In this document: positions 3,182-51,166 of the stretch, one piece after another
Layout: every line of letters starts with the position of its first letter
Numbering within the stretch: the first letter of the stretch is position 1
NCBI GenBank assembly: GCA_964398445.1
Contig: CAYNMK010000001.1
Location: 1 to 59,253 of the forward strand
DNA: 59,253 bases
Direction of reading: 5' to 3'
Source of the DNA: an uncultured Candidatus Saccharibacteria bacterium
GTDB lineage: Bacteria > Patescibacteriota > Minisyncoccia > UBA6257 > UBA9933
Position numbers and translations under genes: made by a program
Notes under the pieces: model-generated
What the model was told of the DNA's origin: nothing
The model's database searches: none
The model's input: the letters and a program-made list of their open reading frames with translations, nothing else

Positions 3182-4039
3182 ATGACGCTCTCAAAAATTA
3201 CAATAATAACTTTAATTATTGGCGCAGGGCTTTTGGGCTCTTACTGGATTATTCAAGATGCCAAACAAACTGCTGGTGAAACTGCAGGATTTTCTTTTGA
3301 ACAAAAAATTAATCTTGAAAATGCGCCTCTTAAGGCTATAAAAGAATCAATTCAAGAAATCCAAAAAATTATTAAAAATGAAAATTTAAATTCTTTAAGC
3401 TTAAACAACCAACTTCCTGAAAATTCTAATAATCTCACTGAAATAGTTGCCAAAGCCGTAGTTAGTGGAATTTTAGAAAAAAATAAGGGCGAATTAACTA
3501 TGACCGAACAAGGCGAGCCAAAACTTTTAATGCCCAATAAAGAAGCCTTGCTCCAAGAATTAACCAATCAACTTGCCAATTTAGACGCTGGTTTACTTAA
3601 TTTAAACCAACCGATTAACAGAGCTGATTTGAAAATATCCCAAGATAACTCTCTGGAAGCGCAAAATAAATATATTGAAGGAATTCGAATAATAACCCAA
3701 GTTCGCTTTGGAAACTTTCCAAAACAAAACATTTCGGACATTTTAGAAAAAACCATTAACACTGGCGACACCACTCAAGTAAAAAAATTATCCAAACTTT
3801 ATAGGTCCGTAATAGGAGATTATTTGGCGCTGGAGGTTCCTTTAAGATGGTTGAATTTTCATAAAAAAGTTTTAACTCATTTCCAAAACGCGGAAGTTAT
3901 TTATTCCACTTTGGCAAACTTTCAAAATGATCCGCTAAAATCTCTTTTGGCAATTGAAGCTTGGTATAAATTGCCACAATCTGCCCAAAAAATTCAAGAG
4001 GTTTTTAAAGCAAAAAGCCTAAAAATAGGATATAATTAA
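3182..4039 (+). CDS. hypothetical membrane-anchored protein, first gene of the T4SS-like block
   Basis: 285 aa with an N-terminal TM helix (ITIITLIIGAGLLGSYWII) followed by a hydrophilic helical domain. No family recognised. Confidence 0.5.
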   Translation: MTLSKITIITLIIGAGLLGSYWIIQDAKQTAGETAGFSFEQKINLENAPLKAIKESIQEIQKIIKNENLNSLSLNNQLPENSNNLTEIVAKAVVSGILEKNKGELTMTEQGEPKLLMPNKEALLQELTNQLANLDAGLLNLNQPINRADLKISQDNSLEAQNKYIEGIRIITQVRFGNFPKQNISDILEKTINTGDTTQVKKLSKLYRSVIGDYLALEVPLRWLNFHKKVLTHFQNAEVIYSTLANFQNDPLKSLLAIEAWYKLPQSAQKIQEVFKAKSLKIGYN

Positions 4040-9492: not shown

Positions 9493-10140
9493 ATGCCTAA
9501 ACAAAGCGCATCAACCCAACAATTTGTAGATATTGAAAATATTAGCAACGATGTAATTATTTTAAAAAACGGTTCTTTGCGTCGAGTTTTGATGGTGGCT
9601 GGAATTAATTTTGAGCTTAAATCTGAAGAAGAGCAAAATATTATTACTTATGCTTACCAGAATTTTTTAAACACATTAAATTTTTCCGTCCAATTTATAA
9701 TCCATTCCCGAAAATTAAATATTGATGGCTATCTTGAAAAATTAGCCGGACGCAAAAAGCAAGAAAACAATGAATTGATGAAAAATCAGATTTCCGAATA
9801 CATAGAATTTATCCGCTTATTTGTTGATCAAAATGCAATAATGACAAAAACTTTCTTTGCCATAGTTCCTTATGACCCAATTCAAATTCCTACTGGCGGT
9901 AAAAAAATTTTTGAAATATTTAAGCTAAAAGGAAAGACACAAACCACTCAAACAGAACGAAATTTAGAACAAAAAATTCAACAACTTAACCATAGAACCG
10001 ACCAAATAATAAATGGGCTTACGCAAATAGGCCTCCGCGTAGTTCCGCTTAACAATGAAGAATTGATTGAATTATTTTATAATCTTTATAATCCGGGCAC
10101 TACAGAAAAAGGGGGATTAAAAATTGCCAAAGAACAATAA
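9493..10140 (+). CDS. VirB4/TrsE-like protein, N-terminal part
   Basis: 215 aa, in the same frame as the next ORF and separated from it only by TAA plus 3 codons. The start (QQFVDIENISNDVIILKNGSLRRVLMVAGINF) resembles the N-terminal domain of Gram-positive-type VirB4. Confidence 0.6.
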   Translation: MPKQSASTQQFVDIENISNDVIILKNGSLRRVLMVAGINFELKSEEEQNIITYAYQNFLNTLNFSVQFIIHSRKLNIDGYLEKLAGRKKQENNELMKNQISEYIEFIRLFVDQNAIMTKTFFAIVPYDPIQIPTGGKKIFEIFKLKGKTQTTQTERNLEQKIQQLNHRTDQIINGLTQIGLRVVPLNNEELIELFYNLYNPGTTEKGGLKIAKEQ

Positions 10141-40641: not shown

Positions 40642-43389
40642 ATGTATAAAAAAATTGCTATTTTTAGTATTTATGGATTAATAATACTCGCGTTATTTTT
40701 AGTGCCTACTGCCATTGGGTTGCTTGTTGATTGGTATTGGTTTAAAGAAATCGGGCATAGCGATATTTTCACTACCATTTTAAGCGCTAAGGTATTATTA
40801 GGCGTGGGCGTTGGTCTTGTTAGCTTTATTATTATTTATAAAAGTTTTTGGATTGCTAAGCGAATACTTGGCCCAAGCTTGATTGCTGTTCGTTTTAGTT
40901 CTAATCAGAGCAATGCCCAAGAAGTTCAAATAGGAAAATATCTTAATAAATTAATTTTGCCAGTTTCTCTTGTTATTGGCTTTCTAACAGGGCTTGTTGG
41001 GTCAGGCAAATGGGAGGCTGTTCTTAAATATTTTTACGCTGTACCTTTTAATGTGTATGACCCGATATTTGGTCGTGATATTTCTTTTTATATTTTCAGT
41101 TTGCCTTTTATTGAATTTTTAATTGGTTTAGGTTTTTGGATTATTATCGTTTCTCTGCTTGGCGTAATTGCAATTTATAGTACTGGGGGGGCTTTGGCAT
41201 TTAAGCAGGTAACAACAGGCGCTAATACAGTTAAAAAGCTGTTTGTAGAAAAAATGGCTAAAATTCACCTCTCAAGTCTTATTGGATTTTTATTTATTTT
41301 AACAGCTCTTCAGATTTACGCTATTAGAATTCCTTCTTTACTTTATAATACCACTGGATTATTTACAGGGGCAGGTTACACAGATATTAACGCAGTCTTA
41401 CCATTTTTAAAAATACTTATTGTTGTTGCTATTGTTGCAGCTGTTCTAGTCCTTATAAATGCGTTTAAATCAAATAATCGCTTTGCGTTTATAGCTTTTG
41501 GCTCTTATTTTTTAACATCTTTAATAGGAGGCTGGGCTTATCCGGCTATTATTCAAAAATTAGTAGTTTTACCAAATGAATTAGCAAGAGAAACTCCTTT
41601 TATTGAGCATCATATCGCAGGCACAAAAGCCGCCTTTGGTTTAGACAGGGTGATAGAGCGTAGTTTAACTGGGGAAGCAGTGCTTACAATAGATGATATA
41701 AATAATAATCAATTAACTGTTCAAAACATACGGCTTTGGGATAGCGGGCCATTATTAGACACTTTTGGTCAGCTTCAGGAAATTCGTACTTATTATGACT
41801 TTGTTTCAATTGATACTGATCGTTATTATATTAACGGAGAATTACGTCAGGTTTTACTCTCCCCGAGAGAACTTAATTCAGCTAGTTTACCTCAGCGTAC
41901 CTTTATTAATGAACGATTAACTTTTACTCATGGATTTGGCTTGACATTAAGTCCGGTTAACGAAGTTGCGCAAGGAGGTTTGCCAAATCTTTTTGTTAAA
42001 AATCTTCCGCCCCACACTGACATAGAGTCACTTGTAATAACTCGTCCTGAAATATATTTCGGAGAATTAGTAAACGACTGGGTAGTGGTGAATACGAAAA
42101 ACAAAGAGTTTAATTATCCTTCTGGTGAAGAAAATGTCTTTAAAAGATACGCAGGAGAGGGTGGAGTCCAAATAAGTTCAACTTTTAGGAGGATTTTATT
42201 TGCTTTGCACTTTAGGTCAATGAAACTTTTTTTGTCTGATGATATTACTAGTGATTCGCGAATAATGTATAATCGAAATATTACAGAAAGAGTGGAGCGA
42301 GCGCTGCCATTCTTGAGCTTTGATAATGATCCATATATGGTTATTACTGAAAAAGGTGAGCTAAAGTGGATATATGACGCTTATACTACTTCAGATCGTT
42401 TTCCGTATTCTGAGCTTGTGGCTAATATATTTAGCCCATTTCCTGATAGTCGCATTAATTATATTAGGAATTCGGTTAAAGTTGTAATTGATGCTTACGA
42501 TGGCAAAATGAGATTTTATATCAGTGACCCAGAGGATCCGATTATTAAAACTTATGCTAAAATTTTTCAAAATGCATTTTTGCCGATAAGTGAAATGTGT
42601 GCCAATCTTAGGAAGCACATTAGATATCCTCAGGATTTGTTTGCTTATCAAACAGCCCTTTATACTATTTATCATATGGATGAAGCGCGAATTTTTTATA
42701 ACAAAGAAGACCAATGGGAAATTCCATCAATTATGGGTGGAGCTGCGACTGATCAAATGATGAGGCATATGATTATGAAATTGCCAGGAGAGAAAAGAGA
42801 GGAATTTATTTTAATGATTCCGTTTACTCCGCGAGGCAAAGACAATATGTCAGCATGGATGGTAGCTCGTAATGACGGAGAGCATTACGGCGAGTTAATT
42901 GTTTATCGTTTTCCAAAGCAAAAATTGATTTTTGGACCTAATCAAGTTATGAATCGTATTAATCAGGATGCCGATATTTCTCGTCAACTTTCTCTTTGGG
43001 ATCAAGGGGGTTCTGAGGTGATTAGGGGAAGTCTTTTGGCAATTCCTATTGAAGAGTCGCTTATTTATGTTCAACCGATTTATTTGAGAGCTGTAGGGGG
43101 CAGAATACCAGAGCTTAAAAGAGTAATTGTGGCTTATGGGAATCGCATTTCTATGAAAGAGACATTGGATATGGCGTTAGTAGATGTATTTGGTGGGCAG
43201 GTTATGGCAATTGAAGAAAGAGAAGTTAAAGAAATTAAAAAAATCACCCCAATTGAATCTTTTGATCAGAGCGACTTAATTAAACGGGCTAAAAATTATT
43301 TTAGCCGCGCTATGCAAGCCCGGCAACAAGGCGATTGGGCTTTATACGGAGAAAAGATTAAAAAATTAGGAGAAATATTATCTCCATAA
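40642..43389 (+). CDS. UPF0182 family large membrane protein
   Basis: 915 aa. About 7 N-terminal TM helices plus a large soluble domain with conserved segments (YRFPKQKLIFGPNQV, SLWDQGGSEVIRGSLLAIPIEESLIYVQPIYL). Confidence 0.8.
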   Translation: MYKKIAIFSIYGLIILALFLVPTAIGLLVDWYWFKEIGHSDIFTTILSAKVLLGVGVGLVSFIIIYKSFWIAKRILGPSLIAVRFSSNQSNAQEVQIGKYLNKLILPVSLVIGFLTGLVGSGKWEAVLKYFYAVPFNVYDPIFGRDISFYIFSLPFIEFLIGLGFWIIIVSLLGVIAIYSTGGALAFKQVTTGANTVKKLFVEKMAKIHLSSLIGFLFILTALQIYAIRIPSLLYNTTGLFTGAGYTDINAVLPFLKILIVVAIVAAVLVLINAFKSNNRFAFIAFGSYFLTSLIGGWAYPAIIQKLVVLPNELARETPFIEHHIAGTKAAFGLDRVIERSLTGEAVLTIDDINNNQLTVQNIRLWDSGPLLDTFGQLQEIRTYYDFVSIDTDRYYINGELRQVLLSPRELNSASLPQRTFINERLTFTHGFGLTLSPVNEVAQGGLPNLFVKNLPPHTDIESLVITRPEIYFGELVNDWVVVNTKNKEFNYPSGEENVFKRYAGEGGVQISSTFRRILFALHFRSMKLFLSDDITSDSRIMYNRNITERVERALPFLSFDNDPYMVITEKGELKWIYDAYTTSDRFPYSELVANIFSPFPDSRINYIRNSVKVVIDAYDGKMRFYISDPEDPIIKTYAKIFQNAFLPISEMCANLRKHIRYPQDLFAYQTALYTIYHMDEARIFYNKEDQWEIPSIMGGAATDQMMRHMIMKLPGEKREEFILMIPFTPRGKDNMSAWMVARNDGEHYGELIVYRFPKQKLIFGPNQVMNRINQDADISRQLSLWDQGGSEVIRGSLLAIPIEESLIYVQPIYLRAVGGRIPELKRVIVAYGNRISMKETLDMALVDVFGGQVMAIEEREVKEIKKITPIESFDQSDLIKRAKNYFSRAMQARQQGDWALYGEKIKKLGEILSP

Positions 43390-48517: not shown

Positions 48518-49936
48518 ATGAATAATAATTTTTTAGGAAAACAGTCTGACTTAATGGAAAAAGTGGTTAGCTTGAGTAAGCGGCGGGGATTTATTTATCC
48601 TGGTTCGGAAATTTACGGTGGATTAAAAGGCACATGGGATTATGGTCCGCTTGGCTCTGAGCTTAAGTTTAATATTAAACAAGAATGGTGGAAAACAATA
48701 GTTAGGGACAGAGATGATATTGTTGGAATGAGCGCTTCTATACTGATGAATCCCAGAGTCTGGGAAGCGTCTGGCCATATTGACGGTTTTAGCGACCCTT
48801 TAATAGAATGTAAAATTTGCCATCAAAGATTTAAAGCGGACCAAAAAGATATGGTTGCGGAACATGAAAAATGGCATAAGGAAAAAAAAGAAAAAATAGA
48901 TTGGACCGAAGAAAAAAAATTCAATTTAATGGTTGAGGCAAAACTAGGAGTGGTTGAAGGAGAAAAAAACACTACTTATTTAAGAGGCGAAATAACGCAA
49001 GGAGTTCATGTGAATTTTAAAAATATTTTAAACAGCTCGCGCCTTAAAATTCCTTTTGGCGTGGCGCAGATTGGCAAAGCGTTCCGCAATGAAATTACGC
49101 CTGGTAATTTTACTTACAGGTCAATTGAATTTGAGCAAATGGAGCTTCAGTATTATATTAAACAGGATAAAAAAGAAGGAAAGAAATGGTTTGAATACTG
49201 GAAAGCCGAAAGAATGAAATGGTATAAAAATCTGGGAATAAAAAAAGAAAATTTAAGATTCAGGGAGCACGAGCCGAATGAGCTGGTGCATTACGCGAAA
49301 GCGGCATGGGACATTGAATATAATGCGCCATTTGGCTGGAAAGAATGCGAAGGCATACATCATCGCGGCGACTGGGATTTATCGCGGCATCAGAAATTTT
49401 CTAATCAAGATATGTCTTATTTTGATGAAGAAACAAAAGAAAGATACATTCCGCGGGTAATTGAAACATCAGGCGGAGTTGATAGGGCGGCATTATTTTT
49501 TTTAATAGACGCTTATTCAGAGGAAAAAGACCCCGCAAAAAATGGGGCAAGCAGAATAATTTTAAAGTTAAATTCTAAGCTCGCGCCATATAAGGCAGCT
49601 GTGTTTCCGCTTTTGGCAAACAAGCCGGAATTAGTTAAAAAAGCTCGCGAAGTTTATAAAATATTAAAATTTAATAATCAAAATTCAGCAGCTGGCAGTT
49701 TTAATGTTGCGTGGGATGAGCGCGGGAATATAGGCAAGCGTTATTATTCGCAGGATGAGATTGGAACTGTTTTGTCAGTTACCATAGATTTTCAAACATT
49801 AGAAGACAAAACAATAACATTAAGAGACAGAGATACAGCAAAACAAATAAGAGTTTCAATTTTGGAATTGCCAGAAATAGTTTATAAGATTATTAATGGA
49901 GGAGAATTTTTAAGTTTCGGGAAATTAGTTAAATAA
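48518..49936 (+). CDS. glyQS: glycine--tRNA ligase (class II, alpha2 type)
   Basis: 472 aa. RRGFIYPGSEIYGGL..TWDYGPLG, the FRNEI motif and an anticodon-binding C-terminus. Confidence 0.9.
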   Translation: MNNNFLGKQSDLMEKVVSLSKRRGFIYPGSEIYGGLKGTWDYGPLGSELKFNIKQEWWKTIVRDRDDIVGMSASILMNPRVWEASGHIDGFSDPLIECKICHQRFKADQKDMVAEHEKWHKEKKEKIDWTEEKKFNLMVEAKLGVVEGEKNTTYLRGEITQGVHVNFKNILNSSRLKIPFGVAQIGKAFRNEITPGNFTYRSIEFEQMELQYYIKQDKKEGKKWFEYWKAERMKWYKNLGIKKENLRFREHEPNELVHYAKAAWDIEYNAPFGWKECEGIHHRGDWDLSRHQKFSNQDMSYFDEETKERYIPRVIETSGGVDRAALFFLIDAYSEEKDPAKNGASRIILKLNSKLAPYKAAVFPLLANKPELVKKAREVYKILKFNNQNSAAGSFNVAWDERGNIGKRYYSQDEIGTVLSVTIDFQTLEDKTITLRDRDTAKQIRVSILELPEIVYKIINGGEFLSFGKLVK

Positions 49937-50002
49937 TTTACAGTAATTTTTTTGTTGGTTTTTACGTTTTTAAAAATTTTTATAAAATTAAATATAAGAA
50001 AT

Positions 50003-50207
50003 CGTAGCGTTGTTTACACTTTTCGCGCCTGAATATTCCGAACGCGTCCTGAGCGTTACCCCAAAGTTCGCAGCCATTTTTTCCAGGAGCGTAGCGTCCC
50101 TTTATGGCTGGGAAAAATGGTGTTAAGCGAACGAGGCTGGTAGCGAAGGCAAGAGAAGAATTGTTCAGGTGGGGAAAGTTCAAAGACACACTGTAAACAA
50201 CGCTCGG
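50003..50207 (+). ncRNA. structured RNA candidate with 6S-like rod / central-bubble architecture
   Basis: 48% G+C (96/200, hand count over 50001-50200) in a roughly 30% background. Closing stem 50006-50018/50192-50204 (13 bp). Second stem 50019-50033/50164-50178 (14 of 15 paired). About 30 nt unpaired on each side (50034-50065, 50133-50163). Terminal arm 50066-50071/50127-50132 plus 50074-50086/50108-50120. All three wobble pairs are G-U on the plus strand. A T5 run lies at 50210-50214 and a -10-like TATAAG at 49993-49998. Confidence 0.45.
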
Positions 50208-50263
50208 GATTTTTATAAAAATTAAAATTTAAAATATAAATAGGAATTTTAATAACAAAAACT

Positions 50264-51166
50264 ATGCTAAAACTTAATTTAAAACAATTAATAAAAGTGG
50301 CCGTTGTTGGCGAAGTGGCTAGTCCGCTTTTAAGGCAGGATTATCAGGTGAGTCATGAAGGTAGTCCATTTAATTTGCCTAGTATCGGCGGCATTACTTA
50401 TAATGTAAAAATTGGTGACTTAGTAATGGGTTGGGCCGGAGATCATATTGAGCCAGGCGTAAGCACTTACAATAAAGAAAGTAGAGGCAGTGGAGATTTT
50501 AGAAATTCAAGTGAAAACATCGGATATAATGTTCTTTCTTCCATTGGTAATGTCGCCACCCTTATTACGGGCAAAGCAAAAAATAAAAAAGGAATAATAA
50601 CTGGAACACATGGCGGCGCAGAGCATGTTTTAATGGATTTTTCGGACGATATTCTTAAAAAACTTGTTTATGGGGACAAGGTTCAAGTTGTGGCATTTGG
50701 TTTGGGATTGTCAATTCTTGATTGCTTAGAGATTAAAATTTTTAATTTAGATCCGGGTCTTTTGCTAAAAATTAAACCAAAATTTAATCACGAAAAGAAA
50801 TTGGAATTTCCAGTGGTCGCAAAAATCCCTCCTTATTTAATGGGCTCTGGATTAGGGCACGGTTCAGTTGTAAGCGGTGATTACGACATCACAATGGCTG
50901 ATGAAAAAATTACCAAAAAATTAGGATTAGATAAATTAAGATTTGGAGATATTGTGGCTATTGAAGATACGGATAATACTTTTGGTAGAACCTTTAGGCC
51001 AGATGCGGTTACTATTGGCGTGGTTGTTCATTCGGATTGTGTTTTAGCTGGCCATGGTCCTGGCGTTACTACAATTTTAACCTCAAGGCAGGGCAAAATT
51101 AAACCAATAATCGATAAGAACGCTAATATTGGTTATTATTTAAAACTCGGCCGTTGGAGGAAATAA
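50264..51166 (+). CDS. conserved hypothetical protein (possibly DUF4438-like, unverified)
   Basis: 300-aa soluble, Gly-rich, beta-rich protein with no motif I can name confidently. Lies immediately downstream of the structured RNA candidate. Confidence 0.45.
   Translation: MLKLNLKQLIKVAVVGEVASPLLRQDYQVSHEGSPFNLPSIGGITYNVKIGDLVMGWAGDHIEPGVSTYNKESRGSGDFRNSSENIGYNVLSSIGNVATLITGKAKNKKGIITGTHGGAEHVLMDFSDDILKKLVYGDKVQVVAFGLGLSILDCLEIKIFNLDPGLLLKIKPKFNHEKKLEFPVVAKIPPYLMGSGLGHGSVVSGDYDITMADEKITKKLGLDKLRFGDIVAIEDTDNTFGRTFRPDAVTIGVVVHSDCVLAGHGPGVTTILTSRQGKIKPIIDKNANIGYYLKLGRWRK

Follow-up and report, generated by a model that had tools for sequence, protein, structure and literature searches.

The GC-rich folded stretch that separates glyQS from a DUF4438 gene in the window, the whole 59,253-nt stretch of DNA that was analysed, is probably a composite non-autonomous transposable element: a MITE with IS481-type ends that carries a captured structured module. 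It has terminal repeats and a target duplication, it encodes no transposase and has no coding capacity, its copies are dispersed in the host genome, and an autonomous partner with the same ends is found in metagenomes. The earlier note had read the stretch as a 6S-like RNA or, as a second choice, as a cis-regulatory leader or orphan riboswitch of the gene that follows it. The element is reassigned here because of its repeat structure, its terminal repeats, its target duplication and its cognate transposase, and not because of an Rfam match. The host genome (G000) comprises 562,548 bp in 46 contigs and is 99.5% complete. The features of the window and the copies detected in the whole host genome by BLAST and covariance model R1 are collected in Table 1.

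Table 1. Features of the element and its surroundings in the window, and copies of the element in the host genome (contig:position)
Feature	Position	Strand	Remarks
Upstream gene (glyQS), glycyl-tRNA synthetase-like class II aaRS	48518..49936	+	
Spurious 69-aa ORF inside the repeat	49980..50189	-	
Left target-site duplication AAAATTAAA	49984..49992	.	Family rule 7 bp (AATTAAA); 9 bases match here
Whole MITE copy, 225 nt	49993..50217	+	CM R1 placement 49992-50218, 233.6 bits
5' terminal inverted repeat TATAAGAAATCGTAGCGTTGTTTACAC	49993..50019	+	IS end on the transposase stop-codon side
Closing stem of inner module, 5' strand	50018..50039	+	Lineage-specific sequence, always paired
Internal loop, 5' side GAACGCGTCCTGAG	50040..50053	+	Motif GAACG...CCGAGCG conserved across families
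Conserved structured core	50046..50158	+	Helices P6, P7, P8; CM R2 126.8 bits
Core motifs	within 50046..50158	+	CCCGAAG, GGAGCG, CGUUAA-(P7)-CGAGG, GCAAGAGA; terminal loop variable in size
Closing stem, 3' strand	50158..50179	+	
Unpaired 3' bulge TCAAAGACACAC	50180..50191	+	
3' terminal inverted repeat CTGTAAACAACGCTCGGGATTTTTATA	50191..50217	+	
Right target-site duplication AAAATTAAA	50218..50226	.	
Downstream gene, DUF4438 protein	50264..51166	+	46 nt beyond the element
Full-length copy (window copy)	C1:49992-50218		
Full-length copy	C19:10723-10966		
Full-length copy	C33:3377-3624		
Full-length copy	C2:10287-10530		
Full-length copy	C4:7529-7771		
Truncated copy	C20:3049-3262		94% identical to the window copy
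Truncated copy	C19:4678-4906		
Truncated copy	C2:21247-~21410		
Internally deleted mini	C2:19168-19236		
Internally deleted mini	C20:2332-2405		
3' end fragment	C3:9908-9952		

The stretch stands out by its composition and by its fold. The G+C content of 50000-50199 is 0.48, with flanks of 0.22-0.37 and a background of about 30%. Folding of 49993-50214 gives -85.4 kcal/mol for the + strand (z = -6.46), with none of 200 dinucleotide shuffles as good, and -63.1 kcal/mol for the - strand (z = -2.87). The claim of a GC-rich folded stretch is thus confirmed, the long rod of the + strand being far better than that of the - strand. The 13-bp closing stem that had been described (AGCGUUGUUUACA/UGUAAACAACGCU) and the second long stem are both present in the predicted rod, and the terminal arm appears as a 6-bp plus a 14-bp helix. 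The unpaired strands that face each other had been put at about 30 nt; they are about 14 and 12 nt long (50040-50053, 50146-50157). A weak 3-bp helix may split this two-sided loop, and the IS repeats extend the stem of the rod. Three wobble pairs had been counted, and the consensus structure on the + strand contains nine G-U pairs and one A-C mismatch. The T5 run and the upstream TATAAG are both there, but they are no terminator and promoter: these are the two tips of the terminal inverted repeat; sister copies read TGTAAG...CTTACA where the window copy has TATAAG and the T5 run. No terminator was found at the window element in a consensus scan. The earlier note was right to regard the 69-aa minus-strand ORF as spurious. 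It shows no codon-position bias (39, 37 and 41 variable columns at codon positions 1, 2 and 3), its frame is lost among the copies, and it has no Pfam match.

The element ends in 27-nt inverted repeats of the form TGTAAGA-N7-GCGTTGTTTACA. All the full-length copies of the host genome start with T(G/A)(T/C)AAGAAT-N4-AGCGTTGTTTACA and end with its reverse complement. When metagenomes were scanned with the pattern TGTAAGA-N7-GCGTTGTTTACA, at least 120 loci were found, and among the matches listed inverted pairs of the repeat enclose 19 units of 871-943 bp and 22 units of 89-557 bp. Six of the seven long units examined are intact, and each encodes a single protein of 268-279 aa with an HTH and an rve-type DDE domain (motifs DDFSRE...SDNG.EY...TNGKAER); the seventh (L129) has a 169-aa ORF only. 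The stop codon of the transposase sits within one terminal repeat of the long units. The best family for this transposase is IS481 (NF033577, 171.5 bits, E = 2.7e-50, below the curated cut-off of 224 bits), followed by IS3 with 64.6 bits, and its Pfam matches are rve and rve_3. An exact 7-bp AT-rich duplication flanks 10 of 36 same-ended elements, long and short alike. In the host genome a clean target duplication is seen at the window copy alone (AAAATTAAA on both sides), older copies having at most 5 of 7 matches. The shared IS ends, the target duplications and the short derivatives that have no transposase therefore identify the element as a MITE.

The insertion itself is documented by relatives that have no element at the corresponding place. 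G001, a member of the same genus, has a DUF4438 orthologue that is 85% identical and begins about 20 nt after glyQS, with no element between them, and no element was found in the whole G001 genome (84% complete). G002, also of the same genus, has a dnaG-rpoD spacer of 88 nt where the host genome has a 243-nt copy. The host genome contains five full-length copies, three truncated ones, two internally deleted ones and one end fragment, with identities of 72-94%. Most copies contain an extra small hairpin, GACAUUCU-GAAA-GAAUGUC, which is missing from the window copy and from the copy on C20, and most other copies, as well as those of G049 and G018, read YCUGAGGA at the 3' bulge.

The insertion, the repeats, the target duplication and a cognate insertion sequence were all observed, and how the element came to be where it is can be proposed by analogy with the IS481/IS3 family, from which its transposition chemistry is inferred. 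The two 27-nt terminal repeats are those that bound a small IS481-family insertion sequence of Patescibacteria, about 0.9 kb long. The transposase of this insertion sequence, acting in trans, would bind the repeats, paste the element into AT-rich intergenic DNA and duplicate 7 bp of the target. A second hairpin element that spreads independently was probably captured by the MITE, or inserted into it, and then amplified with it in the host genome. That this module spreads independently is proposed because it is found elsewhere without IS ends and is present or absent between close relatives. No cognate transposase was found in the host assembly by tblastn, and since there is none the copies are probably stranded and decaying. 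At the glyQS-DUF4438 locus the element most likely does nothing specific; if the two genes are co-transcribed, it would add a very stable hairpin to their transcript.

The assembly does contain one IS481-like gene. C10:18450-19430 (L028 1075-2055) encodes a 326-aa IS481-family transposase (NF033577, 192.5 bits) and ends 10 nt before the end of the contig. It was considered as the cognate enzyme and rejected, as it is only 24% identical to the cognate transposase and has other ends; it is the sole gene of its kind in the assembly. G066 has a partial cognate transposase together with minis that carry the same terminal repeats, and is the sole such genome within the family. A mis-spaced version of the repeat pattern matched two sites in G288, which also belongs to the order; they are identical and repeat-like (TAAAATTTCATAGCGTTGTTTACA) and lie in inverted orientation 37 kb apart (C12:4529-4552 on the - strand and 41711-41734 on the + strand). 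A search of the literature for IS481 or MITEs in the candidate phyla radiation or Patescibacteria found nothing relevant.

The element shares with IS481-family (IS3-superfamily DDE) MITEs the 27-nt terminal repeats of the type TGT...ACA, identical to those of full-length insertion sequences, as well as the short AT-rich target duplication, the non-coding interior, the multiple copies, the truncated and deleted derivatives and the empty sites in relatives. It differs from them in its interior, which is a separate conserved structured module and not the remnant of a deleted insertion sequence. The cognate insertion sequence is also unusual in being very small (about 0.9 kb, with a protein of 268-279 aa that falls below the NCBIfam IS481 cut-off) and in having no transposase in the host assembly. 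Correia/CREE of Neisseria, ERIC/IRU of enterobacteria and RUP of pneumococcus are short, intergenic, imperfect palindromes that occur in many copies, are often adjacent to genes and are co-transcribed with them. From what is generally known of these repeats, the element resembles them as a multi-copy intergenic palindrome that is able to supply the ends of genes, as the C4 copy does for the stop of dnaG. In contrast to them it is longer (225-250 nt) and has an asymmetric, loop-rich core that is conserved across families and also occurs outside the repeat ends. In the C4 copy, which is situated between dnaG and rpoD, the 5' terminal repeat (C4:7529-7540; L015 ~1501-1512) contains both the last codon of dnaG (TTG) and its TAA stop, and the sequence there reads …AATAAT TTG TAA GAAT…; the dnaG of G002 ends differently and has no element there.

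The interior of the element is not derived from the insertion sequence. It is a core of about 115 nt set on a variable closing stem, the whole module being about 170 nt. Most of the short elements bounded by these repeats are IS-like over no more than about 30-40 nt on either side, and their interiors are mutually unrelated, GC-rich and strongly self-complementary. The core was absent from 100 other loci with the same ends when these were searched by BLAST and covariance models. At least seven other genomes, from five families of the order, have the core without these ends, with one or two copies in each. Within the same family it is carried by G002 (one copy) and G049 (two copies, about 90% alike), and in other families by G181, G075, G104, G078 (two copies) and, weakly, G106, all of these from other families being found with the core-only model R2 (114 positions). 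Across the order, 6 of the 151 sampled genomes carry it, the host genome included. In its own family the element or its ends are present in 5 of 51 genomes, again including the host; two carry the core and two have only the IS-type ends. A scan of genome contigs with a strict core pattern found it in one MAG only.

In G002 the core lies between pilMN and pth, and the host genome has a spacer of 14 nt at the same place, from which it follows that the module is also gained or lost between congeners without IS ends. Two nested A/T-rich inverted repeats, ATAAAAATCTTTTT … AAAAAGATTTTTAT, enclose this G002 copy (L010 1440-1790), which together with them occupies the entire gap from the stop codon of pilMN to that of pth, two genes that converge here.

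All the members are built on the same plan. The closing stem measures 17-22 bp in each of them, and its sequence differs from lineage to lineage, and even between the two G078 copies, with the pairing kept. The two-sided loop has GAACG...CCGAGCG on its 5' side and GCAAGAGA on its 3' side in all members, and the helices P6, P7 and P8 are found throughout with conserved CCCGAAG, GGAGCG and CGUUAA-(P7)-CGAGG. The terminal loop of the core tolerates inserts of 5-48 nt.

Two alignments bear on the selection of this fold. In alignment A4, which has 11 rows (eight copies from the host genome, one from G002 and two from G049), 88.7% of the structure cells are paired, compared with 40-51% in slid controls, and in alignment A5, made of nine distinct cores from outside the host genome, 82.9% are paired, compared with 41-51%; these figures lean towards the model because the alignments were fitted to it. 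Changes on both sides occur in 48 of 85 pairs in A4 and in 20 of 32 pairs in A5. The closing stem (helix 3) has changes on both sides in 15 of its 21 pairs. In P7 compensatory changes convert GUUCGC/GCGAAC into GCGUCU/AGACGC and into GCGCGU/ACGCGC. The sense strand has an excess of G-U pairs over A-C mismatches, with ratios of 9:1 in the window copy, 7:1 in G002 and 6:0 in the first G049 copy, which are the best copies of their three lineages, and of 21:9 across the cores from outside the host genome. The ratios are 12:12 and 17:12 in decayed copies. In 11 of 14 members the sense strand is the more stable one, with a margin of 3.8 kcal/mol or more. The two strands are within about 1 kcal/mol of each other in G078b and G106a, and the copy at C19:10723-10966 (C19a) favours the antisense strand by 8.0 kcal/mol. 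The observations on the strand amount to moderate evidence. The covariation that the earlier note had proposed to look for is thus present, and the compensatory changes support a conserved and strand-biased fold.

Does the core do anything as a single strand? Its well-kept pairing, its conserved loops, the G-U excess and the greater stability of the sense strand suggest that it does, as the interior is unusually well kept for a plain MITE. One reading that may be taken from this is that the core is a functional structured RNA of the + strand, such as a 6S-shaped decoy or some other RNA that binds protein, and that selfish DNA spreads it, the MITE being its vehicle in the host genome. We consider this possible but rather unlikely. 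It would account for the covariation in P6, P7, P8 and the closing stems across at least five families, for the conservation of the unpaired motifs CGUUAA..CGAGG, GGAGCG and GCAAGAGA, and for the one-strand G-U excess and lower folding energy. The closing stem, the 14/12-nt loop, the bulged terminal arm and the length of about 190 nt give the module a 6S-like outline. In G075, G078a and G078b the upstream gene has a hairpin like that of an intrinsic terminator and the element comes after it, a position that would suit an independent transcription unit. However, the core has no Rfam match, and its distribution is patchy, most genomes of its own family having none. Its orientation to neighbouring genes is mixed, the G049 copies being antisense to both flanking genes, and the fold has been lost in several copies of the host genome, such as C4 (z = -0.7) and C19a, which folds better on the antisense strand. 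Paired changes in the two arms are also possible in foldback DNA elements. The fuller proposal, that the core and its fast-changing but paired closing stem constitute a new functional structured RNA family of Patescibacteria, perhaps a 6S-shaped decoy of polymerase or another protein, propagated by selfish DNA and amplified here by the MITE, is in our view unlikely.

A strand-asymmetric fold with conserved loop sequences would also be expected if the element worked as single-stranded DNA, its fold serving a rolling-circle or ssDNA-transposing element as a strand-specific signal for replication or recombination. Rolling-circle plasmids have single-strand origins in the form of imperfect rods of roughly 200 nt with a conserved loop motif of the TAGCGT type, and the terminal region of the element reads GCGTAGCGTCC, which may be likened to this motif as a lead, although no model match backs it as a single-strand-origin loop. 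This reading is very unlikely: no similarity to plasmid or phage collections was found, genes for Rep, Y1 or HUH proteins were not seen in the neighbourhood of any copy, and transposition of the IS481/IS3 type goes via double-stranded intermediates.

That the stretch is the 6S RNA gene of the genome is most improbable. Its outline may be likened to that of 6S RNA: it forms a rod, about 190-225 nt long, in which a closing stem leads through an internal loop open on both sides to a terminal arm with bulges. The rod shape and length noted earlier would fit, and the + strand does fold better. The likeness does not extend to a match with RF00013 or to a single conserved gene. No 6S match was found at E <= 10 within 49900-50300, and RF00013 found nothing in the whole host genome or in seven related loci. 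In addition, 8-11 copies, truncated and broken ones among them, are present in a genome of 0.56 Mb, IS ends and a target duplication delimit the element, and it is absent from the orthologous site of the congener G001 and from the rest of that genome, which is 84% complete. Unlike 6S RNA, the element is multi-copy, mobile and patchy and has no conserved neighbour. The statement that the stretch matches no known riboswitch is borne out by Rfam, and no other family claimed it either.

That the element controls the DUF4438 gene in cis, as a leader or as an orphan riboswitch, is suggested by its position 46 nt upstream of that gene on the same strand. This has scarcely any chance of being right, since the G001 orthologue does without the element, other copies precede unrelated genes or lie antisense to their neighbours, and neither an expression platform nor a terminator is present. 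The genes that follow the copies encode a DUF4438 protein, an S41 (Ctp) peptidase, a Mur ligase (MurE-like), RpoD, PNPase and membrane proteins; they are unrelated, and the element is therefore not a leader for one regulon. It was also considered that the element might supply an outward promoter, with all the intact copies co-oriented upstream of genes. This was dropped, as seven copies are co-oriented with the neighbouring gene and four are antisense to it, which is not significant.

Some other resemblances to RNA families are at the level of chance. A group I intron (RF00028) scored 18.4 bits against a cut-off of 50; its GUUCAAAGAC is not conserved among the copies and the site is intergenic. 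A match to HSUR in the permissive scan of 49900-50300 was weaker still and also at chance level. In the C19:10723-10966 copy the 3' strand of the closing stem (GAGGAAAGUCCGAGGAC) is identical over 12 nt to GAGGAAAGUCCG, which we take to be conserved in bacterial RNase P RNA. The likeness is probably a coincidence, since the sequence is different in the remaining copies and RNase P models give no match. No Rfam family reached its gathering score anywhere in positions 1-59253 of the window, hence there is not even a tRNA in these 59 kb, and the seven related loci had no Rfam match.

The MITE as such is ordinary mobile DNA. About ten copies of it in an otherwise streamlined genome of 0.56 Mb indicate that ultra-small bacteria tolerate transposon bursts. 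Its cargo is a covarying, strand-biased module with conserved loops that is common to several families and is carried there on different ends. If the core is transcribed and functional, it would represent a new class of RNA carried about by selfish DNA; otherwise the element would be a clear case of foldback repeats that mimic an RNA gene, and it would call for caution in the discovery of RNA genes in candidate phyla.

Further hairpins are found beside and inside these elements. A second GC-rich palindromic repeat (…GCAACGCTTCGCGTAGCGATGCGGGCAGGAACGACAAG…) adjoins two of the copies in the host genome, on C33 (~3650-3710) and on C3 (~9990-10060). Several metagenome MITEs that have the ends of the window element (L116, L117, G066b) are filled inside with similar GTCATTGCGAG…CTCGCAATGAC hairpins. 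These hairpins suggest that small hairpin elements have nested in one another repeatedly.
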